Positions 21,806 to 34,042 of a DNA stretch of 64,000 bases are shown one piece after another. The notes under the pieces were generated by a model. That model did not search any database. It saw only the letters and a list, made by a program, of their open reading frames with translations, and was not told the DNA's origin. The stretch spans positions 19,335 through 83,334 of the forward strand of contig JAFQZL010000039.1 of NCBI GenBank assembly GCA_017405945.1. The letters are read 5' to 3'. The stretch is from Acidaminococcaceae bacterium (lineage in GTDB: Bacteria > Bacillota > Negativicutes > Acidaminococcales > Acidaminococcaceae). Numbering within the stretch: the first letter of the stretch is position 1; each line of letters begins with the position of its first letter. A program made the position numbers and the translations under genes.

Positions 21806-22354
21806 ATGCCAAAAAAAATCGTAATCTTAAATGGCAGTCCCCGGAAAAACGGCAATACCGCTTCGCTGACCGCCGCTTTTAAACGGGGTGCGGAAGAAGC
21901 CGGCCATATCGTGACGGAATTTTTCCCGGCGCATATGAAAATCAACGGATGCCTCGGCTGCTGGAACGGTGGAAAAGACGCGGCGCATCCCTGTGTACAG
22001 CGCGACGACATGGAAAAAATCTATCCTCTTTACAAAGAAGCGGATGTTGTCGTTCTTGCGTCCCCACTCTATTACTGGTTTATTTCCGGGTTTTTGAAAA
22101 ACACGTTTGACCGGTTGTTTGCCATTGCAGAAGCCGATTCGAACTATGAAAATCCAAAAAAATTAACCGCGCTGATCATGGCGGCGGAAGGCGACGAATT
22201 CCAGGAAAGCGAATTCTGGTACGACCATCTGGAACGCCACATCGGATGGAAAAGCATTGGAAAGGTATTATGCGGCTATGTAGCGCAGCCCGGCGACACG
22301 AACGGGAAACCGGAGCTTGCCGAAGCATATAATCTTGGAAAATCAATTAAGTAA
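21806..22354 (+). CDS. Flavodoxin/NADPH-dependent FMN reductase family (ISF-like)
   Basis: NGSPRKNGNT, GCLGCWNG...PC, SPLYYW. Confidence 0.88.
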   Translation: MPKKIVILNGSPRKNGNTASLTAAFKRGAEEAGHIVTEFFPAHMKINGCLGCWNGGKDAAHPCVQRDDMEKIYPLYKEADVVVLASPLYYWFISGFLKNTFDRLFAIAEADSNYENPKKLTALIMAAEGDEFQESEFWYDHLERHIGWKSIGKVLCGYVAQPGDTNGKPELAEAYNLGKSIK

Positions 22355-22371
22355 AAAGGAGCCCTGAAAAA

Positions 22372-22869
22372 ATGGAAAAAATCACATTGCCCAAAGCATC
22401 GGTTCTGACCTCCCCCAATCCGGTCACGCTTGTCTGCACAAAGAAGCCGGATGGAACCACAAACCTGGCTACGGTATCCTGGTGGACTTATCTCTCCTTC
22501 AATCCGGGTATGATTGCATATGCCATGGCGAAAACATCGTACAGCGGTGAAATGGTGAGACAAAACAAAAAAGTAATCCTCACGATTCCCGGCGAAGCAA
22601 TCGCGAAAGAAGTAATTGGCTGCGGCACATCAACCGGACGTACTACCGATAAAATCGCAAAGCTCGGTATCGCGATGCAGGACTTGCCTGATGCGGATAT
22701 CCGCGTACCGCTGCACAGCCGGGTTGCAATTCAGTGCACCCTCAAAGAGTACCATGAAGCGGGTGATCATTACCTCTATATTTGTAACGTAGACCAGGTA
22801 TTTGGAAACGAAAATGAAACGGCTGTTTTTGCCTGGAATGGCTATGGGGAAATCCGTCCGGCGAAGTAG
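22372..22869 (+). CDS. Flavin reductase-like (split-barrel) protein
   Basis: PNPVTLV, NLATVSW, AGDHYLYI. Confidence 0.85.
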   Translation: MEKITLPKASVLTSPNPVTLVCTKKPDGTTNLATVSWWTYLSFNPGMIAYAMAKTSYSGEMVRQNKKVILTIPGEAIAKEVIGCGTSTGRTTDKIAKLGIAMQDLPDADIRVPLHSRVAIQCTLKEYHEAGDHYLYICNVDQVFGNENETAVFAWNGYGEIRPAK

Positions 22870-22978
22870 ATTCAAAGGAACACTCTTTCGTGACAGCAAA
22901 AGCCAGGCGCTTTTCTGTCCCAAACTTTTAGCCAAATATCCGACAATTTAAGTTAAAAAAGTATAATCTAAATCCTCT

Positions 22979-23147
22979 TTCCGGTCACTTCAGTGACCGG
23001 ATTTTTTTCACAACTCCAGTGATGGCGCGGTTTTCCAGCCTGCTTTCTGTTAATATATATAGACAATCATATTTATCTGTCTCCAGATAGTATACCTTTC
23101 GTTTATTACGATGCTTTGTCCGGGAAAGCTGCCACTGAGCCGACGCG
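22979..23147. repeat. Dispersed bipartite intergenic repeat, copy 1
   Basis: Block A 22979-23068 matches 60243-60332 at 84/90; block B 23121-23147 is identical (27/27) to 60387-60413. Confidence 0.92.
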
Positions 23148-23358
23148 TTAAAGTCAGGTTTTTTATATAAAAGTTCATACCTTACCTCCGTAGATCAGGC
23201 ATGGCAGTCTTCCTTCATCGTCATTATCAGTAACAATTATTATTAAAAGTGTTTTTTAATGATATTTACTCGTCTGTTTTGTTCTCGTCTTTAGAAATCA
23301 ATAATCAACCTTTTTTAGCGTATTTTTAAAAATTTTAAAGAGTTTTTGGCAAAACGTC

Positions 23359-23387
23359 TTGACAAGTTTATTAGTAATAATTATAAT
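23359..23387 (+). promoter_or_regulatory. Perfect sigma-A promoter TTGACA-N17-TATAAT with no downstream ORF
   Basis: TTGACA 23359-23364, TATAAT 23382-23387. Confidence 0.85.
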
Positions 23388-23393
23388 TAAATA

Positions 23394-23520
23394 AACAAAA
23401 CTAAATATGCTTTGATTTGGATTAAGCCATATTCATACCAACCCTCATCCTTCTCCTTCTTCGCCTTTTATAACGGCAAGATAAAAAGCCCGCATCTGGA
23501 CCATGCGGGCTTTTTATTTT
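23394..23520 (+). ncRNA. Candidate small regulatory RNA, about 125 nt
   Basis: Bounded by the consensus promoter and an intrinsic terminator; CU-rich tract CCCUCAUCCUUCUCCUUCUUCGCC; no RBS-led ORF. Confidence 0.55.
23484..23520. terminator. Bidirectional intrinsic terminator
   Basis: AAAAAGCCCGCAT-ctggacc-ATGCGGGCTTTTT. Confidence 0.88.
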
Positions 23521-23534
23521 TGCAGATGACACTC

Positions 23535-24947
23535 TCATCTTCCTTCCAGTTTTTGTTCAATCACTTCTTCCGGTCCGTCCGGCAGAAGCCCGTTCACCTC
23601 GTCAACATCCCCCTGTTCAACATGTTTGAAATACCGTTTTGTCTCGGCAACCACCACGCCGCTGAGCGCCAGCAGGGCGATCAGGTTCGGAATCGCCATG
23701 AGGCCGTTGACAATATCCGCCAGCACCCAGATTGCCTCTAACTTCAGGAAAGCGCCCAAGGCTACCAGCACAATAAAAATAATACGGTACGGAAGAATAG
23801 CCTTCACACCGGCCAGATAGACAATGCAGCGTTCCCCGTAATAATTCCAGCCCAAAATGGTAGTGAAGGCAAACAGCACCAGACCCACCATCAGCACGAT
23901 TTTCCCGGCTTCCGGATAGCCCTGCATGAAGGCCGCCTGGGTCAGCGCCGCCCCGTTCAGGTCGCCCTTCCACAGCCCGGATACCACCAGGGTGAGGCCG
24001 GTAAGGGTACAGATTATGATCGTGTCGATAAACGTGCCGGTCATGGAAACCAGCCCCTGCTCCGCCGGCCATTTTGTCTTAGCCGCAGCAGCCACAATAG
24101 GCGCAGAGCCCAGGCCGGACTCGTTGGAGAATACGCCGCGGGCCACGCCGGACCGCATGGCCAGCATGACGCTCGCCCCGGCAAATCCTCCGGCCGCCGC
24201 AGTCGGCGTAAACGCGCAGCGCAGCACTTCCATCACTGCGCCGGGTACTTTGTCAATGAACATGAGCAGGAAACCGACCGTCGCGACAAAATAAATCACC
24301 GCCATTGCCGGAACGATCTTGCTGGCAACCGAGGCGATGGACTGCAGGCCGCCGATGGTTACCGCGGCAACCGCCAGCGTGAGAATCACGGCCGTATACA
24401 TGGGATCGAGCCCGACAGAAAGCTTTGTAATATCCACAATGGAATTCACCTGGGCAAAGGTGCCGATGCCGAAATAGGCAACCAGCACGCCCGCCGCCGC
24501 AAAAAACACAGCCAGCGGTTTCCACTGCCTGCCCATGCCGTTTTCAATATAAAACATGGGGCCGCCCGCAATTTCGCCGTGTTCGTCCACGCCGCGGTAT
24601 TTCACAGCCAGCAATCCTTCCGCATATTTGGTCGCCATGCCGAAGAACGCAGCCACCCACATCCAGAACAGCGCGCCGGGTCCGCCGGCTTTCACAGCCG
24701 TAGCCACGCCGACGATATTACCGGTGCCGATGGTAGCGGCAAGAGCCGTGCACAACGCCCGGAACGACGAAGTGTCCCCTTCGCCCTGGCTCTTTGCTTT
24801 AAAAATAAGCCCTAACGCTTTGGGCAGCCTCGCAACCTGCAGAAAACCCAGACGCAGGCTCAGAATCACACCGGTTCCCACCAGCAGCACAAGCAGCGGC
24901 GGTCCCCAGACAAAACTGTCAATTTCGTTCAACAACTCCAGATTCAT
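23535..24947 (-). CDS. Alanine/glycine:cation symporter (AGCS family)
   Basis: LAATIGTGNIVGVA, GGPGALFWMW, GVFSNESGLGSAP, GTFIDT; glycine riboswitch upstream. Confidence 0.95.
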   Translation of the reverse strand: MNLELLNEIDSFVWGPPLLVLLVGTGVILSLRLGFLQVARLPKALGLIFKAKSQGEGDTSSFRALCTALAATIGTGNIVGVATAVKAGGPGALFWMWVAAFFGMATKYAEGLLAVKYRGVDEHGEIAGGPMFYIENGMGRQWKPLAVFFAAAGVLVAYFGIGTFAQVNSIVDITKLSVGLDPMYTAVILTLAVAAVTIGGLQSIASVASKIVPAMAVIYFVATVGFLLMFIDKVPGAVMEVLRCAFTPTAAAGGFAGASVMLAMRSGVARGVFSNESGLGSAPIVAAAAKTKWPAEQGLVSMTGTFIDTIIICTLTGLTLVVSGLWKGDLNGAALTQAAFMQGYPEAGKIVLMVGLVLFAFTTILGWNYYGERCIVYLAGVKAILPYRIIFIVLVALGAFLKLEAIWVLADIVNGLMAIPNLIALLALSGVVVAETKRYFKHVEQGDVDEVNGLLPDGPEEVIEQKLEGR

Positions 24948-25044
24948 AGTCTCTCCTCCAAGGGTACAAAATAAAAAACTTACCTCCAACTGCTCCGGAG
25001 ATAAGTTCGCAAATCAAAATAACAGGAAACATCCTGAAATCTTT

Positions 25045-25240
25045 CTCTGTCCTTTTGCCTGAGAGATAAGAAAGCCGCGTAAGCTTCCGTGCACCTTCGG
25101 CGCCCGTACCGGAAAAAGGCGAAGCCGCATCCGTACCGGGACTCTCCAGAGTCGTGTCCCCTTATGGTTCCGCTTTTTACAGCGCCTGAGAGTGTAGCTC
25201 CTTCGGCAGGCTTGCGCCGTTCTCCCACAAGATTCATCCA
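25045..25240 (-). promoter_or_regulatory. Tandem (two-aptamer) glycine riboswitch
   Basis: Minus strand: GGAUGA..GGGAGA..CCGAAGGAGC..CUCUCAGG, then CUCUGGAGAG..GCCGAAGGUGC..CUCUCAGGCAAAAGGACAGAG. Confidence 0.95.
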
Positions 25241-25478
25241 CCTTTGTTCAGTTGTACGACAGCATTTATTATATACTTTTTTTCAGCAAATGCAAGTGTT
25301 CTGCAACAATTTTCTGATCAATGACAATCCCTGAACGTGTATGGTAAAAGACTTTGCAACATTCAAGCATTATATGAAGGATGAAAAAATGATAATTTCA
25401 TAAAAAACTGAGCCACCGACCTTGCGCCGATGGCTCTTCGTATTTATTGAGATAGTTTTATTTTTTTTATTAAAACAC

Positions 25479-25868
25479 TCACTTTACATTTGCATTAATA
25501 AAATCAACAACTTTTCCGGTGGGTGTTCCGGGCGTGAATACTTCGGCAATACCCGCCGCTTTCAGACCGGGAATATCCGCATCGGGAATTACGCCGCCGC
25601 CGATTACCAGAACATCGGTCATGCCTTTTTCCTTCAGCAGTTCCACCACTTTGGGGAACAGGGTGTTATGCGCGCCGGACAGAAGGCTCAGCGCCACAAC
25701 ATTCACGTCATCCTGTAACGCAGCCTCCGCAATCTGTTCCGGTGTCAGACGGATCCCGGTGTAGATTACTTCAAATCCCGCATCACGCAATGCCCGGGCT
25801 ACAACCTTGGCGCCCCGGTCATGACCGTCCAGACCGGGTTTTGCTACTAACACTTTAATATTGGCCAT
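25479..25868 (-). CDS. B12-binding small subunit of an acyl-CoA mutase
   Basis: [12 protein letters not shown] (DxHxxG), SLLSGAH, GGVIP. Confidence 0.95.
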
Positions 25869-25897
25869 TTTCATTTCCTCCATTTATATTCTGTCAT

Positions 25898-27262
25898 TCA
25901 GTCCGCAAGACACGCTGCCAGATCTTTGGCAAAGTCTTCACATTTTTCCAGATGTTCAATCAGTTTGCAAAGCTTTTCTGCTTTTGCCTCCCCGTAAACA
26001 GGCACGGCAAGATGCATGAATTTTTCTTTTGCTTCATTCCACGTCAGCGGGTTATCCGGATCGCCCTTGGGGAAGTCCACCTGCCGTTCCAGCGTCCGCC
26101 CGTCCTTCATGACCAATACGACCTTCGAAGCAAGCTTAGCCGGGTTTTCATCGTGTACCTTCTCCATCTCCGCATCCAGAATTACCTCAGTGCGGCTCAT
26201 CAGCCCGCGAACCACCGGATCCTGGATTACATCCGGGGCAAACTCCTCGATTCCCACCACGCCGTTTTTCAGCATGGCAGAAGTGCAGTACTGAATGCTG
26301 AACTTACATCCGTACGGGTTTTTCGGAGCAGGATTATTAATCAGGTAGTTTGTTATTTCATTCACATATAGCTTCACCTGTGCCACATCATCCGGTTTGA
26401 TGTTGTTTTCAGCGCGCAGGGTCTGGATTGCGTACAGCGCCGCATGGGAATGCTTGCAGCAGGCATAGGGCTTAAAGGAATTGTCGTCAATTTTCAGACG
26501 TCCCTTTCCCAGTCCTTCCGTCAGTTTTTCCAGATGCGGCTCCGGCACCATAGCCCGGCAAAAGCCCTTTTCCCCCTCCAATATCTTACTGGCGCCGGTA
26601 AAACCTTTTTGGGAGAGATAACCGGAAAGGACAGCGGCATAAGAACTCTTCCCTGCATGAAGCACCTTGCTCATAGCGCCTTCTTTCAGGAACTCCCATA
26701 AACCGGCTGCCTGTGTCCCCGCGCTGCCGTAACAGTTTATGGTCTGTTCAAGGTTCAGATTAAGCAGGTTAGCCGCAGCCGCAGCCCCGCCAATGGTACC
26801 GGCGGTACCGGTGGTATGCCAGAAGAAATACGATTCAGGGATTACGGATTCACCGACACGGCCACCTGCTTCATAGCCGGCGCAAACGGCCGTAATCATA
26901 TCCTTGCCACTTTTATGTTCGGCCTCGCCAATGGCAAATACCGGGGGCACTACCACGCAGGCAAGATGAATTATGGAAGGATTATGCAAATCATCAAAAT
27001 CCAGGGAATGGGACGCCGCGCCATTACAAAACGCTGCGTTCAGCGCATTGGTTTTTAAATCCGAACCGGAAAACACCGTAGCATTTCCGGCGCCGGCATC
27101 TAAAATGGTCTCCCGGATGATGCGGGAGGGAGTTTCCCGGGAACCGCGGATCGCAATTCCCAGCCAGTCCAGCATGCAACGTTTTGCCATTTCCACGGAA
27201 TGGGCGGAAAGATTTTTGTATTTTAAGGCTGAGGTAAATTCAGCCAGCGCTTTGGTTGTCAT
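25898..27262 (-). CDS. MmgE/PrpD family protein
   Basis: HSLDFDDLH...H, KVLHAG, FKPYACC, PKGDPDNPL. Confidence 0.93.
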   Translation of the reverse strand: MTTKALAEFTSALKYKNLSAHSVEMAKRCMLDWLGIAIRGSRETPSRIIRETILDAGAGNATVFSGSDLKTNALNAAFCNGAASHSLDFDDLHNPSIIHLACVVVPPVFAIGEAEHKSGKDMITAVCAGYEAGGRVGESVIPESYFFWHTTGTAGTIGGAAAAANLLNLNLEQTINCYGSAGTQAAGLWEFLKEGAMSKVLHAGKSSYAAVLSGYLSQKGFTGASKILEGEKGFCRAMVPEPHLEKLTEGLGKGRLKIDDNSFKPYACCKHSHAALYAIQTLRAENNIKPDDVAQVKLYVNEITNYLINNPAPKNPYGCKFSIQYCTSAMLKNGVVGIEEFAPDVIQDPVVRGLMSRTEVILDAEMEKVHDENPAKLASKVVLVMKDGRTLERQVDFPKGDPDNPLTWNEAKEKFMHLAVPVYGEAKAEKLCKLIEHLEKCEDFAKDLAACLAD

Positions 27263-27344
27263 TTTATTTCGTTCCTTTCATAAACAAACTTCAAACAGTT
27301 CCTTATAAAAGAATTTGTACAAATTCACCAGCGTTGCCTTCTCA

Positions 27345-29012
27345 TCAGAACGCGGAACCGTCCTGTTTGTATTCGCCAAATACTTCGCGCATTACGCCGC
27401 AAATTTCGCCCAATGTCGCATAGGTTTTCACTGCAGCAATCAGATACGGCATCAGGTTTTCTTCGCCCTGGCAGGCTTCCTTCAGTTCGGCCAAAGCCTT
27501 GTCTACGGCAGCCTGATCCCGCTTTGCTTTCATGGCATCGACGCGTTTAATCTGGCGTTCGCCCACGCTCAGGTCTGCTTTCAGGGATTCGCCTTCCACA
27601 GCACCCTTATTATCCGCATATTTGTTAACGCCGATGACAGTCTTCTTACAGGTTTCAATGGCAGTCAGGTCTTCATAAGCATGGGCCGCCATTTCGCGCT
27701 GCATGTAACCCTGTTCGATTGCGGCAACCGCGCCGCCCATCTCATCGATCTTCTTAATGTATTCTTCCGCTTCCTTCTCAATCTTGTTCGTCAGGGATTC
27801 TACGTAATAAGAACCTGCCAGCGGGTCAATCGTATCAGCCACGCCGCTTTCATAAGCAATCAGCTGCTGGGTACGCAGCGCCAGTGTTGCCGATTCTTCG
27901 GTAGGCAGACACAGAGCTTCGTCATAGGCGCAGCAGGCCATGGACTGGATGCCGCCCAATACGGCAGACATTGCCTGCCAGGTAATGCGGGCCACGTTGT
28001 TCAGCGGCTGCTGTGCCGTCAGAACGGAACCGGCCGTATGCACATGGACGCGAAGCATCTGGGCCTTGGGAACCGTCGCCCCATAACGTTCTTTCATAAT
28101 ACGCGCCCACAGGCGGCGGGCCGCACGGAATTTCGCGATTTCAAAGAAGAAATCCAGGCCGGCGGTGAAAATCCAGCTGATGCCGGGGGCAAAGTCGTCT
28201 ACCTTCTGCCCTGCTTTAATCGCCGCGTCAATATAGGCGATCGCATTGGCAAACGCAAAGGCAATTTCCTGTACTTCGGAAGATCCGGCTTCACGGATAT
28301 GGTACGCGCCTACGCTGATGGTATTCCATTTTGGAATATATTTGGAACAGTACTCAAAGGTGTTGGTAATCAGCCGCATGGAAGGACGGGGCGGGAAGAT
28401 GTACGTGCCGCGGGCGATGTATTCTTTTAAGATATCGTTCTGGATGGTGCCGCGGAGCTGTTCCGGTTTAACCCCCTGTTTTTCCGCAACTGCGACATAC
28501 ATGGCCAGCAGGACCGCTGCCGGCCCGTTAATCGTCATGGAGGTGGAAACCTTGTCCAGCGGAATGCCGTCAAACAACTGCTCCATGTCAGCCAGCGAAT
28601 CAATCGCCACGCCAACCTTGCCGACTTCACCGTGGGATAATTCCGCATCGGAATCCAGACCTATCTGGGTAGGCAGGTCCATAGCAACGGAAAGGCCGGT
28701 CTGCCCTGCCTGCAGCAGGTATTTGTACCGGGCATTGGTTTCTTCCGCCGTAGCAAATCCGGCATAGGCCCGCATCGTCCACAGGCGGCCGCGGTACATG
28801 GTAGGCTGTACGCCGCGGGTGAAAGGATACTGTCCCGGGAAGCCGTCTTTTTCCAGATAGTTAAAACCGTCAATATCCAGCGGCGTATATAAGCGCTGCT
28901 TGGCATCCATATGGGGACGTTCCGGGAACTTGGCCGTTGCCTTGGCAACCTTTGCATTATAGGCATCCAGCCCCTGCTGTAACATTTCTTTATCATTCAT
29001 AATATCCGTCAT
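27345..29012 (-). CDS. Large (substrate-binding) subunit of a B12-dependent acyl-CoA mutase, methylmalonyl-CoA-mutase-like but divergent
   Basis: YPFTRGVQ, WTMRAYAGF, TIQNDILKEYIARG, YHIREAG, DEAL, DPLAGSYYVE. Confidence 0.93.
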   Translation of the reverse strand: MTDIMNDKEMLQQGLDAYNAKVAKATAKFPERPHMDAKQRLYTPLDIDGFNYLEKDGFPGQYPFTRGVQPTMYRGRLWTMRAYAGFATAEETNARYKYLLQAGQTGLSVAMDLPTQIGLDSDAELSHGEVGKVGVAIDSLADMEQLFDGIPLDKVSTSMTINGPAAVLLAMYVAVAEKQGVKPEQLRGTIQNDILKEYIARGTYIFPPRPSMRLITNTFEYCSKYIPKWNTISVGAYHIREAGSSEVQEIAFAFANAIAYIDAAIKAGQKVDDFAPGISWIFTAGLDFFFEIAKFRAARRLWARIMKERYGATVPKAQMLRVHVHTAGSVLTAQQPLNNVARITWQAMSAVLGGIQSMACCAYDEALCLPTEESATLALRTQQLIAYESGVADTIDPLAGSYYVESLTNKIEKEAEEYIKKIDEMGGAVAAIEQGYMQREMAAHAYEDLTAIETCKKTVIGVNKYADNKGAVEGESLKADLSVGERQIKRVDAMKAKRDQAAVDKALAELKEACQGEENLMPYLIAAVKTYATLGEICGVMREVFGEYKQDGSAF

Positions 29013-29096
29013 TTTCGTCTCCTCCTTAACACAGTTGTTTTTTTATAATAATAAGATTCTATCGTATCCGTTAGTGAGAGTTAGCCGATATCGATA

Positions 29097-30602
29097 TCAG
29101 TCCAGGCGCATGGTTCCATTTTTGATAAAGTTCAGCTGCATATCGAAGCAATGCGCCAGGTCAACGGGCTCATGCCCGCTCCCCTCTTTAGCTTTCCGCA
29201 GATATTCACGCAGCTGGGGCCTGTAATCCGGATGGGCGCAGTTATCAATAATCACTTTTGCCCGCTGCAGCGGATCGAGGCCCCGGACATCCGCCACGCC
29301 CTGCTCGGTAATGAACACCATGGTGTCATGTTCGGTATGATCCGCGTGGGTCACCATGGGCACAATCTTGGAAATACATCCGTCTTTTGCCGTAGACGGC
29401 GTGGAGAAAATTGTAATGTAGCCGTTCCGCATGTAATCGCCGCTGCCGCCGATGCCATTCATCATGCTGTTACCCATAATATGGGTAGAATTAGCCTGCC
29501 CGTAGATGTCAAACTCAATCGGCGTATTCATGGCAATGACTCCCAGACGCCGGATGACGCCCGGATTGTTGCTGATATCCAGCGGACGCAGCACCAGCGC
29601 TTTGCGGTACAGTTCAGGGTCTTCTTTATACATGGACCAAACCCGTGGAGACGGCGTAAATGCGCAGCCGGAAGCTTTTGTTATTTTTCCCATCTTGATA
29701 AGATCAAATACGGAGTCCTGCAAAATTTCCGAGAACATGTTCAGGTTCTCGAATTTTGATTTGGCAAGTCCGGCCAGCACGGCATTCGCAATGCTTCCTA
29801 CCCCGGACTGCATGGGCAGCATCTGTTCCGGAATCCGGCCCTGACGCTGTTCGTTTTCGAGGAAATCCACAAGGTTTTCCGCAATCTTCATACTGTTTTC
29901 ATCCGGAGGGGTCAGGTTGCGTACATGATCCAGGATGTCCGATTCCACAATGGCATCGATGCGGTCGATGCCGCAGGCCAGATACGGCGACCCTACCCTG
30001 TCTCCCGCATGGTAAATCGGAATCTCCGTCCGGAAAGGCGGCCTGTTGCAAACGTAAATATCATGCATGCCTTCCAGCGATAACGGAATGCTGGTGTTGA
30101 CTTCCACAATGATTTTCTTTGCATGCTTTGCAAAAATCGGCGTATTGCCGACACCGGGCCCCAGGACAATGTCACCGGTTTCCGTAATCGCCGCAGCTTC
30201 TATGACGGCTACGTCCACATCACCGACAAAGCCGTAATCCACCAACGGACCAAAGTGGCTCAGATGACAGTCAATATAGTGAATCGTTTCATTATTGATG
30301 CCTTTCTTTAGCGCTTTATTAGAGGCCGCATAGTACGGAGCGCGCCCGCAGATGCCGCCGACCTCGGCCAGCGCCTCTTCGATTTCCGGACCCACCGAAG
30401 CCCCGGTCCAGACGTTGATGCTGCATTTCTTTCCGTTTTTAATCTGTTCGGCCAGCGCCAATGTCGTTTTCTTGGGATAGCCGGATGGAGTAAAACCGCT
30501 GAACCCGACGTTCATGCCGTCCTTGATCAAATCCGCAGCTTTATCGGCTGTTACGATTTTGTCAAACAACGCAGGATTTCGCAGTCTTTCTGAAGTTAAC
30601 AT
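29097..30602 (-). CDS. Acetyl-CoA hydrolase/succinate CoA-transferase family (AarC/ScpC-like)
   Basis: SGFTPSGYPK, QSGVG, FSEILQD catalytic Glu, NGIGGSGD, TEQGVAD. Confidence 0.93.
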   Translation of the reverse strand: MLTSERLRNPALFDKIVTADKAADLIKDGMNVGFSGFTPSGYPKKTTLALAEQIKNGKKCSINVWTGASVGPEIEEALAEVGGICGRAPYYAASNKALKKGINNETIHYIDCHLSHFGPLVDYGFVGDVDVAVIEAAAITETGDIVLGPGVGNTPIFAKHAKKIIVEVNTSIPLSLEGMHDIYVCNRPPFRTEIPIYHAGDRVGSPYLACGIDRIDAIVESDILDHVRNLTPPDENSMKIAENLVDFLENEQRQGRIPEQMLPMQSGVGSIANAVLAGLAKSKFENLNMFSEILQDSVFDLIKMGKITKASGCAFTPSPRVWSMYKEDPELYRKALVLRPLDISNNPGVIRRLGVIAMNTPIEFDIYGQANSTHIMGNSMMNGIGGSGDYMRNGYITIFSTPSTAKDGCISKIVPMVTHADHTEHDTMVFITEQGVADVRGLDPLQRAKVIIDNCAHPDYRPQLREYLRKAKEGSGHEPVDLAHCFDMQLNFIKNGTMRLD

Positions 30603-31026
30603 TTGAAAATCCCTCTCTTTCCTGTTTATTTTCTACCGACTGCCAATGATTACTTGCTTCAATATTAGTTTAGACCACAAACAAATATAAGTAAAATATT
30701 GTTATTTGCTATTTTTTATAATAAATAATTATATTTCAATGAGTTAAACAAAACATGGAGTATACAAAAAGCCACCGTTTTATAAAACTCTCAGCCAAAA
30801 TGTAACGATACTGCGAATTAATCCTTATAATCAAAAGAATAGTTATCAATATGGTTTATAACTAATATATAATTATTATATATTTTGTCGAATTGTTTAT
30901 AAAAATTTTTAATATTATTCATGGCTAAGTTAAAAGAAACTGTGTATAATGATATAGGGTTATGGTTCCTTTCCTGCCGCGGCCCCATAAACGCGGCAGA
31001 TATTTTTTTCCGTAGCCCCGGAGGAA

Positions 31027-31914
31027 ATGAAAATGGATATTGAATATTACCGCAACTTCATCGCTATCGTGGAAGCCGGCAGTATTTTAGGCGCCTCGAA
31101 AAAACTGTCCATTGCGCAGCCGGCCCTGAGCAATCAGATTAAAGTTATGCAGCGTTTCTTTGACGCGCAGCTGATTATCGCCAAACGCGGAGGTCACCGG
31201 ATTGAACTGACCGACGCCGGCAAAGTACTGCTGAAGCAGGCAAAGACAATTGTGGAAGAGGAACGGAGCGCCATAAAAGAAATCGCCGACTGCAGCTCCG
31301 GTTTTTCCGGAACACTGCGCATCAGTTTGTCCCCCTCCATGTCAATCTGGTTCATACGCCGTTACCTAACGAAATTTTCAAAAAAGTATCCAAAAGTTAA
31401 TTTTGAATTGCATGAAGGCCCCCCATCTGTTCAGGTTGAGCAGATGCTTTCCGGCAAAACCGAGTTCTGTGTTGCCAACGCTCCATTGGAAGAGGCGTTC
31501 CGGTTTGAAACGATATACAGCCGCAAAGAGCGTCTGGTTTCGTTTTTTCATAAAAACAGTCTGTTCCTGCACGATACCAAGCCCCATATTTTGTTAGACG
31601 ATCTGGATGGCAAACCGGTCTGCCTGTCCCAGGGATGCGCCAACCTGTTTCTCTCAGTATGCGCTGACTCCCACATCCGGCCACAGGTCCTGAGCATCAG
31701 CACCACAAAGCTGTCTGCCATGCAATGGGCAAAAGAAGACGCCGGCATTTCTGTAGTTCCTGCAGAGCTGGAAGAAGGAGATACGGATAATCTGATACGG
31801 AAAATCATTATGGATGAACGTCTGTATATGGATAAAACACTCTCTATCGTTAAAGGGCGCCCTCTTTCAAACGTGGCAGAGACCTTCCTGACCTATTTCC
31901 ACGAAGAAGTTTAG
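31027..31914 (+). CDS. LysR family regulator, divergent from the mutase operon
   Basis: YYRNFIAIVEAGSILGASKKLSIAQPALSNQ HTH. Confidence 0.93.
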   Translation: MKMDIEYYRNFIAIVEAGSILGASKKLSIAQPALSNQIKVMQRFFDAQLIIAKRGGHRIELTDAGKVLLKQAKTIVEEERSAIKEIADCSSGFSGTLRISLSPSMSIWFIRRYLTKFSKKYPKVNFELHEGPPSVQVEQMLSGKTEFCVANAPLEEAFRFETIYSRKERLVSFFHKNSLFLHDTKPHILLDDLDGKPVCLSQGCANLFLSVCADSHIRPQVLSISTTKLSAMQWAKEDAGISVVPAELEEGDTDNLIRKIIMDERLYMDKTLSIVKGRPLSNVAETFLTYFHEEV

Positions 31915-32002
31915 TCAGCTATATATAATTGATACTCGTTTTTGATAATTAATTATAAATTCTATTGATAATCTGAAAACAAGGCAGAAAACGGAGGAAA
32001 AA

Positions 32003-32512
32003 ATGAATAACGAAGCAAAAAAATACATTATTGATGATTTCAAGCCTTCCAAACTGGAAAAGGATCCTGTAACCGGTTATTACAAGGATATTGAAGCGCG
32101 GATCCGTGAACTTTATTCCCAAAACTGTTTTATGATGGATTTTTTCCATGTAAACATTGATAAAATCCAATGCGGCAGCTGCCAGGTCAGTTTGCTGATT
32201 GAACACGATAAACACTCCAATCACCGTAACGTAGTTCACGGAGGCGTGCTGACTGCGCTGGCCGATGCTGTATTAGGTGTTACCGGCGCCTCCGTCGGTG
32301 AAAAAGTAATTACCGTCAGCTTTTCCATGAATTTCATCCGCAATATTGAGTTCGGCGATACAGCACGGGTCGTCAGCCAGATAAAAAGTTATCAGCCTAA
32401 ATCCATGGTGATTGAAGCGGAAATGTACGATTCGAAAGACAGACTGATGGCAACACTGTTCACCAACATGTTCAACGTAGGCCGATTTGATGGCATTCCT
32501 GCCAAATGGTAA
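32003..32512 (+). CDS. PaaI family (hotdog) acyl-CoA thioesterase
   Basis: HSNHRNVVHGGVLTALAD. Confidence 0.9.
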   Translation: MNNEAKKYIIDDFKPSKLEKDPVTGYYKDIEARIRELYSQNCFMMDFFHVNIDKIQCGSCQVSLLIEHDKHSNHRNVVHGGVLTALADAVLGVTGASVGEKVITVSFSMNFIRNIEFGDTARVVSQIKSYQPKSMVIEAEMYDSKDRLMATLFTNMFNVGRFDGIPAKW

Positions 32513-32576
32513 TGATGGAATAGCTGATAAATTAGAATTTCAAATAGATACTATTATTGTGAATAAGTATGAAAAG

Positions 32577-32612
32577 AACAGCATCGGCACATATCGTGTC
32601 GATGCTGTTTTA
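32577..32612 (+). terminator. Intrinsic terminator after the thioesterase
   Basis: AACAGCATCGGCAC-atatc-GTGTCGATGCTGTTTT. Confidence 0.8.
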
Positions 32613-32833
32613 TTTGCGACAATCCTGGCTTCCGTAACCGGAACAGCAGCAATTTATATCTAAATATAATCCGTTTTGGAGAGAATTATATGATCCAGCT
32701 CACCTTAACAGATACGTTACAGAACAAATCTCCGCCAGCATAAGGCGGAGATTTTATTGTTTGGTTATTGATTTAACAGTTTTCACATGAGATTCCGGTT
32801 TGTAACCTTAGCTTCCTTATGTTTACAAGCTTT

Positions 32834-33715
32834 TCACGTATTCTTCTTCATGCTTAACATGAACACCGTAATCATAATGAGTGCCATCCCTGCGTAATCA
32901 ACGGGAAGCAGCACGGTTCCCAAAAAGAAAACGGTGAAGAGAATTGTGGCGAGGGGTTCAAAACAGCTAATAAGGGACGCTTTCGTCGGCCCGATAAGTT
33001 TCACCCCTGCCAGAAACAGGGTAAAGGGAATGATCGTTCCCCCCAGAATAATAAACGCTACCGCGCCCGCGGCCGCAGACGTCCAGGCGCTTACGCCGGA
33101 ATCAGTGAGATTACAGAACGGCAAGAGGAACAACGAGGAAATCAGTTGCCCCCAGCCCATAATCAGCATGGTCGGAAACTGTTTCAGGATGTTTTCCGGC
33201 GCGATCATATAAATGCAAAGCGCAATGGCAGAAAGCTCTCCTGATACCAGCGCCACAGGCGAAATGACCAGATGCGACGGATCACCATGGGTGCTGATGA
33301 GGAACACGCCGGTCATGGCCAGCACAACGCCCAGCAGTTCCCGCCCTTCCGGCATGCACCTCCGGACAAAAGCCTGCCATAGAATAATGAATATCGGCGC
33401 CTGATACTGCAGGATGGTCGAGGTGGGCGCGTTGGAAACGCTGATCGTGTAATAATACATAAACTGCGCTCCCAAAAGCCCCAGGGTGAACCAAAGCATT
33501 TCCGTAATATTTTTGCGCCCGCTCCGCCACAGGGCTAACAGCGGCTCCCCTTTTATATGCATGAACAGCAGAAATAATATTCCCGCTGCCACCTGCCGCA
33601 CTGCTATCAGCCAGACCGGGTACGGATGATAATTCTCAAACAGAAACTGTCCGCATACCCCGCTGAGCCCCCACATCGCAGCGCTCAACATCACCATAAG
33701 AGTGCCCATTGTCAT
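32834..33715 (-). CDS. EamA/DMT family transporter
   Basis: MWGLSG, NAPTSTILQYQAP, GPTKASLISCFEP; 10 TM segments. Confidence 0.92.
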   Translation of the reverse strand: MTMGTLMVMLSAAMWGLSGVCGQFLFENYHPYPVWLIAVRQVAAGILFLLFMHIKGEPLLALWRSGRKNITEMLWFTLGLLGAQFMYYYTISVSNAPTSTILQYQAPIFIILWQAFVRRCMPEGRELLGVVLAMTGVFLISTHGDPSHLVISPVALVSGELSAIALCIYMIAPENILKQFPTMLIMGWGQLISSLFLLPFCNLTDSGVSAWTSAAAGAVAFIILGGTIIPFTLFLAGVKLIGPTKASLISCFEPLATILFTVFFLGTVLLPVDYAGMALIMITVFMLSMKKNT

Positions 33716-33863
33716 TGCCGTCCATTACGATTCTGAATTTATAGAGCAAAGCTGTTGTTATACGATACCCCGGCATATTCCATATATATCGCCCCTTGTT
33801 TACAAAAACATTTCATTCTCAGCACTTGCAGCGTTACTTCCGGATGCCGGTACCGGTTTTTCT

Positions 33864-33951
33864 TTCCGGGGGGTAAAAACACCCGGATTTTTTTTGCAAC
33901 TCCAGTAACAGAGCGGTTTTTACCCTACGTACTTCATTAATATATGATAGA
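33864..33951. repeat. Degenerate third copy of block A of the 22979/60243 repeat
   Basis: TTCCGG..hairpin..CCGGATTTTTTTT-GCAACTCCAGT..GCGGTTTT..TTAATATAT..TAGA in the same order and similar spacing. Confidence 0.65.
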
Positions 33952-34042
33952 TAGCGAATATGTCTGTCTATAACTCATTGTCAGACAGCAGATTCAAACT
34001 GTATGACAGAAGGGGTCATAACGTTTTGCCCGCTTTTTGCTG

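Follow-up and report, generated by a model that had tools for sequence, protein, structure and literature searches.

The 64,000-nucleotide stretch of DNA analyzed here, referred to as the window, comes from an Acidaminococcaceae bacterium and carries an operon centred on a B12-dependent acyl-CoA mutase with a remodelled active site. Its four genes lie co-directionally on the minus strand from position 30602 to 25479, in the order CoA-transferase, mutase large subunit, MmgE/PrpD-family protein and B12-binding small subunit, separated by intergenic gaps of 84, 82 and 14 nt. No MeaB, epimerase or decarboxylase gene is located inside the operon. Both this absence and the gene order had been claimed in a first-pass annotation of the same DNA and were borne out by open reading frames and family profiles. 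The four genes, together with the divergent regulator gene and an accessory gene, are as follows.

29097-30602, minus strand: class I (acetyl-CoA hydrolase/transferase family) dicarboxylate CoA-transferase of the YgfH/ScpC subfamily (P0001; TIGR03458, ScpC equivalog NF053853)
27345-29012, minus strand: variant acyl-CoA mutase large subunit (P0002), the substrate barrel, 555 aa, without a B12 domain (PF01642)
25898-27262, minus strand: MmgE/PrpD-family protein (P0003), 454 aa, a candidate isomerase of 2-substituted succinate (methylsuccinate) (PF03972, PF19305)
25479-25883, minus strand: B12-binding small subunit (P0004), 134 aa, with the DxHxxG base-off/His-on motif (TIGR00640)
31027-31914, plus strand: LysR-family regulator, divergent from the operon (PF00126, PF03466)
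32003-32512, plus strand: PaaI-like hotdog (4HBT) thioesterase, accessory to the module (PF03061, TIGR00369)

P0002 belongs to the acyl-CoA mutase superfamily, as demonstrated by 726 bits to PF01642 and 729 bits to TIGR00641, together with the DGHDRG motif of P0004 (TIGR00640, 174 bits). For the numbering of its residues, P0002 was aligned to the fused MutB of the same genome, and that MutB to the Propionibacterium shermanii structure 1REQ, in which the chain index equals the numbering of the paper minus 1. It can be observed that the carboxylate- and thioester-binding set is retained, as the first-pass annotation had stated: Y83, Q191, R201, Y237 and H238 of P0002 correspond to Tyr89, Gln197, Arg207, Tyr243 and His244, and H323 and E365, aligned to His328 and Glu370, are also kept. 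Meanwhile, G235, A236, W280, I281, H325, A359 and C361 replace Ser241, Gly242, Phe286, Phe287, Gln330, His364 and Asn366, i.e., S241G, G242A, F286W, F287I, Q330H, H364A and N366C in MutB numbering. The first-pass annotation had assigned Q330 and N366 to its last two motifs, and this numbering is correct, since H325 and C361 align there against both the MutB of the genome and 1REQ. The pattern of strands 5-8 in methylmalonyl-CoA mutase (MCM), namely ISISGYH, SFF[FW], HxQT and SLHTN, is replaced in P0002 by ISVGAYH, SWIF, HVHT and SMACC.

The substitutions were compared across 63 variant-type and 16 canonical sequences, the latter comprising 12 split and four fused enzymes, including BhbA of S. 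meliloti. Nine of the 555 columns separate the two groups, the seven signature positions at 100% versus 100%, and seven of the nine are located in or immediately past barrel strands 5-8 in the structural model. The motifs ISVGAYH, ISWIF, HxHT and S[LM]AxCA are invariant in the 63 variant sequences and different in the 16 canonical ones, and the difference between the groups is far beyond chance. The six motif differences reported on first reading are all present, but only these four define the clade. RAYAG and VAMD vary inside it, where RQY[AS]G and VAFD are also present, and RMYAG stands in the canonical paralog of this genome; these two motifs are lineage-specific only and lie outside the signature. 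Had the same substitutions been common in verified MCMs, the first-pass annotation would have withdrawn its proposal, and they are absent from P. shermanii 1REQ, the human enzyme and S. meliloti BhbA. They are also absent from the two canonical paralogs of the genome, from isobutyryl-CoA mutase (ICM) and from 2-hydroxyisobutyryl-CoA mutase (HCM). P0002 scores 619 bits with equivalog NF006944, a model of the fused enzyme whose cut-off is 876, a value that the canonical split paralog likewise misses (668.5). In the AlphaFold2 model of P0002 (pLDDT 93.4), which has a TM score of 0.91-0.92 to MCM, the seven residues are on or directly after strands 5 (232-235), 6 (278-284), 7 (322-326) and 8 (357-359), a placement that would set them at the barrel opening on the cofactor side.

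The nature of the remodelling becomes clearer in comparison with characterized mutases, for which references were taken from annotated records, namely Ruegeria MeaA (ethylmalonyl-CoA mutase, ECM), Priestia IcmF, an HcmA-like protein of Mycobacterium sp. ELW1 and S. meliloti BhbA. MCM, ICM and HCM, which act on C4 skeletons, differ at 89, 117 and 207 and share HxQT in strand 7 and S[LI]HTN in strand 8. ECM, with a C5 skeleton one carbon longer, keeps Tyr89 and Arg207 and is altered in strands 5, 7 and 8 (NVCSYH, H328G, H364Q, N366P). The variant also keeps Tyr89 and Arg207 and is altered in strands 5, 6, 7 and 8, by residues other than those in ECM. Such a change is what one would expect of an enzyme for a substituted succinyl/malonyl-CoA pair, and it arose separately from that in ECM. 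ECM (Ecm/MeaA; 'protein meaA' of Ruegeria sp. TM1040, WP_011536726.1) resembles the variant further in that 364 and 366 are both changed, and its reaction in the catabolic direction is the one predicted here, from methylsuccinyl-CoA to ethylmalonyl-CoA. Unlike the variant, it is a fused single chain of 661 aa on a long separate branch, keeps Q330 and F286/F287, and serves acetate assimilation with Ccr and Mcd, neither of which is in the variant module. The best PDB match in both sequence and structure is the 2-hydroxyisobutyryl-CoA mutase HcmA (PDB 4R3U; 528 bits, TM 0.95), a split large subunit of the same length. HcmA has Ile at 89, Asp117 and Gln at 207 for its uncharged hydroxy-acyl substrate and keeps HxQT and SLHTN, whereas P0002 displays the opposite pattern.

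In the mutase tree, the variants form a monophyletic clade (SH-aLRT 99), with the canonical split MCM of Negativicutes as its sister group (93). This clade lies outside that of ECM, Ruegeria MeaA being placed elsewhere along with the ICM and HCM-like references. The canonical split MCM (the paralog on contig C29 of this genome, and the main cluster of Phascolarctobacterium faecium) shares with its sister clade the heterotetrameric fold and subunit organisation, 63% identity, the same carboxylate and thioester residues, the same small-subunit protein sequence and a YgfH-type CoA-transferase gene upstream. The variant is distinguished by its seven barrel replacements, by the absence of MeaB from the cluster, by an MmgE/PrpD gene between or beside the subunit genes, by a LysR or sigma-54 regulator of its own, and by its occurrence in only about half of the sampled family genomes. 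A search of representatives at 50% identity yielded no second variant-type member among the best 150, the top match being 55% identical.

Among the same best 150 representatives, dozens of other uncharacterised mutase types keep the Tyr and Arg and have remodelled strands 5-8. A remodelled mutase as such is therefore not rare, and what is notable here is the tight signature, the partner and the hosts. Another split mutase that keeps Tyr89 and Arg207 is found in Oleispirillum naphthae (L137; G105:C25:181662-183209), with IAVSGYH, IYFFLA, KIFVYT and TLASSSFDE, and appears from these motifs to be a further uncharacterised specificity type.

The names carried by nearly identical proteins place this gut/rumen succinate fermenter near Succiniclasticum in the Acidaminococcaceae. 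The genome (2.46 Mb, 99% complete) contains four PF01642 matches. Contig C57 carries mutA-mutB-meaB, in which MutB passes the NF006944 equivalog at 1227 bits, while contig C29 carries a second CoA-transferase gene and a split large subunit with fully canonical motifs, followed by a B12 small-subunit gene at the contig end. The variant mutase is thus a paralog and not the housekeeping enzyme, in agreement with the first-pass annotation, which would have yielded had the enzyme shown normal kinetics and been the only mutase in the genome; two canonical mutases exist besides it. The fragment of the small subunit on C29 (C29:20516-20731) is identical to P0004 at 72 of 72 residues, although the DNA is only 79% identical, all differences being synonymous. 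An assembly repeat or mis-join as the origin of the small-subunit gene was ruled out by this disparity. The two genes reflect either extreme constraint at the protein level or interchangeability between the canonical and variant mutases. Despite 99% completeness, neither a PF01039 carboxyltransferase nor a true methylmalonyl-CoA epimerase is present in the assembly. Because fragments of a decarboxylase beta subunit sit at contig ends (the end of C29, the start of C39 and the end of C12), the canonical decarboxylase operon and the rest of the canonical pathway are probably unassembled rather than missing.

The MmgE/PrpD partner provides the second line of evidence. Two proteins of this family, PA0881 and C. 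necator Q0K3E6, are proven (S)-(R)-methylsuccinate isomerases (Msi) that act on the free acid only (Gonner et al. 2025, PMC12290011). Catalytic roles have been proposed for His102 and Tyr148, and binding roles for His88, Glu91, His152, Lys202 and Lys266; PaMsi was inactive on citramalate, malate, itaconate and aconitates (PMC12290011). In the same study, Msi were defined by a neighbouring (RS)-methylsuccinyl-CoA dehydrogenase gene and 96% of them were found in aerobic Pseudomonadota, while the substrates of the family, which includes dehydratases and decarboxylases, all share a 1,4-dicarboxylate core (PMC12290011). The Msi reference used here was the PA0881 ortholog from a P. aeruginosa record, the cluster of which is as expected (hydratase, acyl-CoA dehydrogenase, VOC protein, MmgE/PrpD, family III transferase and lyase). 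With 35% identity, 249 bits and an E value of 1e-82, it is the nearest to P0003 among the characterised members. H85, D88, H99, Y145, H149, K199 and K264 of P0003 align to H88, E91, H102, Y148, H152, K202 and K266 of Msi, six of the seven being identical and Glu91 being replaced by Asp, as in IDS epimerase; all seven are invariant in 11 orthologs. The GSAGTQAAGLWEFL block is ungapped in both P0003 and the PA0881 ortholog, whereas PDB relatives have a two-residue gap there. The His/Tyr two-base pair typical of epimerases is kept, with the second catalytic base, Tyr145, at a position where cis-aconitate decarboxylase (CAD) is without Tyr. In the family tree, the mutase-linked proteins constitute one group (85), apart from PrpD and other paralogs. 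P0003 is thus Msi-like but belongs to a new subfamily of its own and is no ortholog of Msi.

Other identities were considered for P0003. Its best PDB matches are B. subtilis 'IRG1' (bsIRG1) at 133 bits, IDS epimerase at 126 and CAD at 115; CAD/IRG1 was ruled out on the basis of the 115 bits only and the presence of Tyr145. PrpD was ruled out by scores of about 50 bits against cut-offs of 458-950 for the NCBIfam PrpD equivalogs of 2-methylcitrate dehydratase, and by the very long outgroup branch of E. coli PrpD. Msi shares with P0003 the MmgE/PrpD fold, an adjacent dicarboxylate CoA-transferase gene and a LysR-type regulator. The partners differ, being a family III transferase, methylsuccinyl-CoA dehydrogenase, hydratase and lyase for Msi, and a B12 mutase and class I transferase for P0003. 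The hosts also differ, being aerobic Pseudomonadota for Msi and anaerobic Negativicutes for P0003. More distant relatives of P0003 are found in further settings: in Roseibium beside acyl-CoA dehydrogenases, a MaoC hydratase and a lyase, and in Deinococcus beside an acyl-CoA dehydrogenase and a family III transferase. Two relatives of 41% identity, one in a Syntrophobacteraceae metagenome-assembled genome (MAG) beside a family III CoA-transferase and a fumarate-reductase-like flavoprotein (L110, 3320-8341) and one in Brevibacillus massiliensis beside a TRAP transporter and a succinyl-CoA-synthetase-like ligase (L118, 2697-8344), may represent other unexplored dicarboxylate modules.

The association between the mutase and its partner is maintained across genomes. 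In a family survey of 101 sampled genomes, with the variant mutase counted at an identity of at least 76% and counts taken from match lists, the variant was found in 49, the MmgE/PrpD ortholog in 51 and both in 48. Nearly all variant-bearing family genomes, and further genera, also have the canonical split MCM (61-64% identical); one genus of 14 genomes has none, and the variant is missing from many genomes that have the succinate pathway. Across 18 family loci (that of the window and 17 others), the core consists of the divergent LysR gene, CoA-transferase, variant mutase and MmgE/PrpD. The LysR ortholog adjoins the CoA-transferase gene in 17 of them, and in most named loci as well; seven of the loci continue with a thioesterase gene and four with a small-subunit gene. 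Many Phascolarctobacterium loci have the thioesterase ortholog directly 3' of the MmgE/PrpD gene on the same strand, although it is not present at many module loci, and in other lineages a sigma-54 activator replaces LysR. The CoA-transferase, variant mutase and MmgE/PrpD genes are linked in most loci searched, which span Acidaminococcaceae, Negativicoccus, Dialister, Veillonellaceae, Selenomonadales and two Alphaproteobacteria. Named hosts of the cluster include P. faecium DSM 14760, P. succinatutens, Succiniclasticum, Negativicoccus succinicivorans, Dialister and the alphaproteobacterium Oleispirillum naphthae, where the four-gene order is the same as in the window; further hosts are MAGs of Veillonellaceae, Selenomonadales and Eubacteriales and one further alphaproteobacterial MAG. 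The seven-residue signature is invariant across all named hosts.

A canonical copy accompanies the variant in every genome checked. The canonical type is also found in P. faecium, two Acidaminococcales MAGs and one Phascolarctobacterium MAG (there only as a fragment at a contig start), while Oleispirillum naphthae has no split canonical enzyme, its canonical MutB being fused. Since the MmgE/PrpD tree largely mirrors the branching order of the mutase tree, the two genes travel as one module; the Phascolarctobacterium paralog L093 is placed differently in the two trees. In one complete Acidaminococcaceae genome (L035/L114), the MmgE/PrpD gene is broken by TAA and TAG stops, and in P. succinatutens YIT 12067 (L064) the mutase is lost and the CoA-transferase is shortened to 312 aa, half of it being lost. 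The canonical cluster in P. faecium and two Acidaminococcales MAGs has the order CoA-transferase, large subunit, B12-binding small subunit, MeaB, epimerase and carboxyltransferase. In one Phascolarctobacterium MAG, a second variant cluster is arranged as CoA-transferase, variant large subunit, MmgE/PrpD, small subunit, epimerase and carboxyltransferase. In two other MAG loci, a sigma-54 activator precedes the transferase, variant large subunit, MmgE/PrpD, small subunit, carboxyltransferase and TRAP permeases. The canonical and variant architectures are parallel, and so the product of the variant would need the same downstream steps as methylmalonyl-CoA. The epimerase in variant clusters would favour a malonyl-CoA derivative that still has its C2 hydrogen, such as ethylmalonyl-CoA.

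The CoA-transferase scores 672 bits to TIGR03458 (cut-off 658.7) and 622 bits to the ScpC equivalog NF053853 (cut-off 500). It shares 48% identity with its counterpart in the canonical cluster on C29, and its best PDB matches are 2G39 and AarC 4EU3. A CoA-transferase of the YgfH/ScpC type and a B12 acyl-CoA mutase are also combined in the sbm operon of E. coli (scpA-argK-scpB-scpC), which converts succinate to propionate and encodes a fused canonical MCM, MeaB/ArgK and a crotonase-type decarboxylase. Unlike the operon described here, sbm has no MmgE/PrpD gene and no remodelled pocket.

What is directly established is which genes are present, that their linkage is conserved, that the active site bears its signature, that the mutase is a paralog of canonical MCM and that P0003 resembles Msi. 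Taken together, these findings leave the balance roughly level on whether the operon encodes an inducible pathway for breaking down a 2-substituted succinate, 2-methylsuccinate being the likeliest, patterned on the way these bacteria turn succinate into propionate; its substrate, products and direction we infer. In the first step, the MmgE/PrpD protein would interconvert (S)- and (R)-methylsuccinate as free acids. During the second step, the CoA-transferase would form methylsuccinyl-CoA from the accepted isomer, with the CoA ester of the pathway end-product as CoA donor. During the third step, the variant mutase and its small subunit would shift the thioester group, giving ethylmalonyl-CoA or, less likely, dimethylmalonyl-CoA from the C4 ester. 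In the fourth step, an epimerase and a Na+-pumping biotin decarboxylase, presumed to be encoded elsewhere in this genome and located within the variant cluster in some relatives, would release CO2 and butyryl-CoA (or isobutyryl-CoA). The acyl-CoA would finally return its CoA in the second step. The net conversion would be methylsuccinate to butyrate and CO2, energetically similar to succinate to propionate, while the regiochemistry of the C4 ester would give isobutyrate instead. The chances that such a pathway, parallel to succinate-to-propionate and leading from methylsuccinate to a C4 acid and CO2, operates here seem about equal to the chances that it does not.

The first-pass annotation had suggested a substituted dicarboxyl-CoA as the substrate, for example that of a methyl- or methylene-succinate-like acid. 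A methyl-substituted succinate is supported because P0003 is nearest to Msi and because ECM is also altered on strands 5, 7 and 8, while the methylene (itaconyl) form is chemically unlikely. Itaconyl-, mesaconyl- and aconityl-CoA were ruled out mechanistically as mutase substrates, there being no sp3 carbon for hydrogen abstraction and migration. With regard to its occurrence, almost all faecal samples from healthy humans contain 2-methylsuccinate, which Eggerthella lenta IrdA forms from itaconate (bioRxiv 10.1101/2022.12.26.521950), and itaconate-fermenting bacteria are not known according to Gonner et al. (PMC12290011). In the literature searched, neither an anaerobic consumer of methylsuccinate nor a methylsuccinyl-CoA mutase other than ECM was found, and no earlier description was found of this gene combination or of Phascolarctobacterium with itaconate. 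A bolder version, which we hold to be improbable, is that a B12 rearrangement outside the described acyl-CoA mutase reactions (methylsuccinyl-C4-CoA to 2,2-dimethylmalonyl-CoA to isobutyrate, or that of another substituted succinyl-CoA), combined with the Msi-like isomerase, would be the first case of 2-methylsuccinate being fermented anaerobically with energy conservation, and this in commensals abundant in humans and ruminants, Phascolarctobacterium among them.

A number of observations weigh against the methylsuccinate route. The residues 330, 364 and 366 are taken by us to contact the substrate, the acyl group or 5'-deoxyadenosine, an assumption drawn from MCM structures and from strand position in the model, and no published roles for Gln330, Asn366 or Tyr89 were found in the literature searched. 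The analogy with ECM is positional only, since the variant has C rather than P at 366 and keeps H328. The CoA-transferase passes the cut-offs of both succinate CoA-transferase (YgfH/ScpC subfamily) profiles. The identity between P0003 and Msi is only 35%, and the mutase-linked MmgE/PrpD group stands in an unresolved polytomy with the Msi clade and relatives from several lineages, not within the Msi clade. In addition, no acyl-CoA dehydrogenase gene adjoins P0003 in the cluster, the presence of such a methylsuccinyl-CoA dehydrogenase gene being the criterion of Gonner et al. for Msi. The hotdog thioesterase has no place in the proposed pathway, and the module is dispensable, having decayed in some lineages. 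Descriptions of isolates such as P. faecium present them as succinate specialists, and in a transcriptome study of that species RS03730 and RS03735, the orthologs, just appear under the succinate pathway, with expression below that of the main cluster (PMC7568257).

Three other explanations have to be weighed. The same pathway logic could apply to another substituted di- or tricarboxylate (malate, another alkylsuccinate or an acid of the tricarballylate type), with the MmgE/PrpD protein acting as an epimerase, dehydratase or decarboxylase on the free acid, which we consider possible if doubtful. The signature demonstrates that the pocket has changed, not what it binds, and P0003 lies outside the strict Msi clade, in a family in which the 1,4-dicarboxylate core is common to all substrates and dehydratases and decarboxylases occur. 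Moreover, the Msi pocket model is said to admit larger C3-substituted substrates (PMC12290011), and one host, Oleispirillum naphthae, is not a gut organism. On the other hand, P0003 keeps the epimerase-type His/Tyr pair that is absent in CAD, and unsaturated acyl-CoAs, having no sp3 carbon, cannot undergo the 1,2-shift of the established MCM mechanism. The narrow specificity of PaMsi, inactive on citramalate, malate, itaconate and aconitates, points the same way, but need not hold for P0003.

It is unlikely, by comparison with the methylsuccinate route, that the variant is an ordinary MCM isozyme for succinate-to-propionate, used under other conditions or with other cobamides, and that the MmgE/PrpD gene is an unrelated passenger. 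Such an isozyme would account for the retention of Y89, Q197, R207, Y243 and H244, for a transferase of the succinate type, for a small-subunit protein identical to that of the canonical cluster on C29, for the epimerase and carboxyltransferase inside the variant cluster in some genomes, and for the listing under the succinate pathway in P. faecium (PMC7568257). It would not readily account for seven positions that are invariant in 16 canonical sequences and replaced in all 63 variants, for a canonical copy alongside the variant in every genome checked while the variant is missing from many succinate-pathway genomes, or for an MmgE/PrpD linkage that persists across phyla in a cluster with its own regulator. 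A speculative third explanation starts from itaconate. Itaconyl-CoA is a suicide inactivator of MCM, and the succinate pathway relies on B12 mutases; the module might thus serve as protection, with a mutase tolerant of itaconyl-CoA and a thioesterase and MmgE/PrpD protein that remove the inhibitor. The Mtb MCM entries 6OXC/6OXD, in line with the established inactivation of MCM by itaconyl-CoA, are among the PDB matches, the module includes a thioesterase, itaconate is present in the gut, and the changed residues probably lie where the adenosyl radical works. Nevertheless, no MmgE/PrpD enzyme is known to remove itaconate, the pocket changes are not a simple narrowing, the cluster's own transferase would make the inhibitor, and the thioesterase is absent at many loci. 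With PaMsi also inactive on itaconate (PMC12290011), protection of this kind is very improbable.

Phascolarctobacterium, Succiniclasticum, Dialister and Negativicoccus, which shape propionate output in the human gut and rumen, are viewed as specialising narrowly in succinate, and a second regulated module of CoA-transferase, B12 mutase and isomerase would give these bacteria another substrate. If that substrate is methylsuccinate, the module would close an open link from host or fungal itaconate through gut-bacterial 2-methylsuccinate to a consumer, and a C4 short-chain fatty acid would be predicted to have a new source. The mutase would then represent a seventh, independently evolved specificity class of acyl-CoA mutases, with a compact signature of seven residues useful for annotation and enzyme engineering. 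Gut metagenomic studies currently label these genes methylmalonyl-CoA mutase and include them in its counts. The decayed clusters (L035/L114 and P. succinatutens YIT 12067, L064) could act as natural negative controls.

Regarding expression, the divergent LysR gene would fit an inducible operon, as proposed in the first-pass annotation. This LysR is 25% identical to that of the itaconate/methylsuccinate cluster of P. aeruginosa, which reflects generic kinship only, and an effector transferred from the latter was dropped because this identity is too generic. Two further features delimit the transcription unit:

30903-30875 and 30891-30864, minus strand: candidate sigma-70 promoters 5' of the CoA-transferase gene (consensus match 10/12, by pattern only)
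25436-25410, minus strand: strong intrinsic terminator at the operon end, with an 11-pair stem containing 7 G-C pairs and then a T run, 42 nt past the stop codon of the small-subunit gene

In ruminant gut RNA libraries, contigs are found over all four genes at a depth of ~1-6. Some of them span the mutase/MmgE-PrpD junction and one spans 30324-30627, the region where the CoA-transferase gene starts, while coverage on the LysR side of the locus is near zero. This suggests that the operon is modestly transcribed in vivo, and DNA carry-over may also account for such contigs. No B12 riboswitch was found in window 22000-34000, the only riboswitch there being of the glycine type and belonging to the next gene. 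Its aptamer (25037-25159, minus strand; RF00504, 51 bits, E 3e-8) lies 5' of a Na:Ala symporter gene (23535-24989), with which it forms a unit separate from the mutase operon, and its depth in the RNA libraries is several-fold above that of the operon. At 23460-23538, on a bidirectional terminator region, two weak Thr_leader-like Rfam matches (36 and 28 bits, under the gathering score) are probably merely the terminator hairpin.

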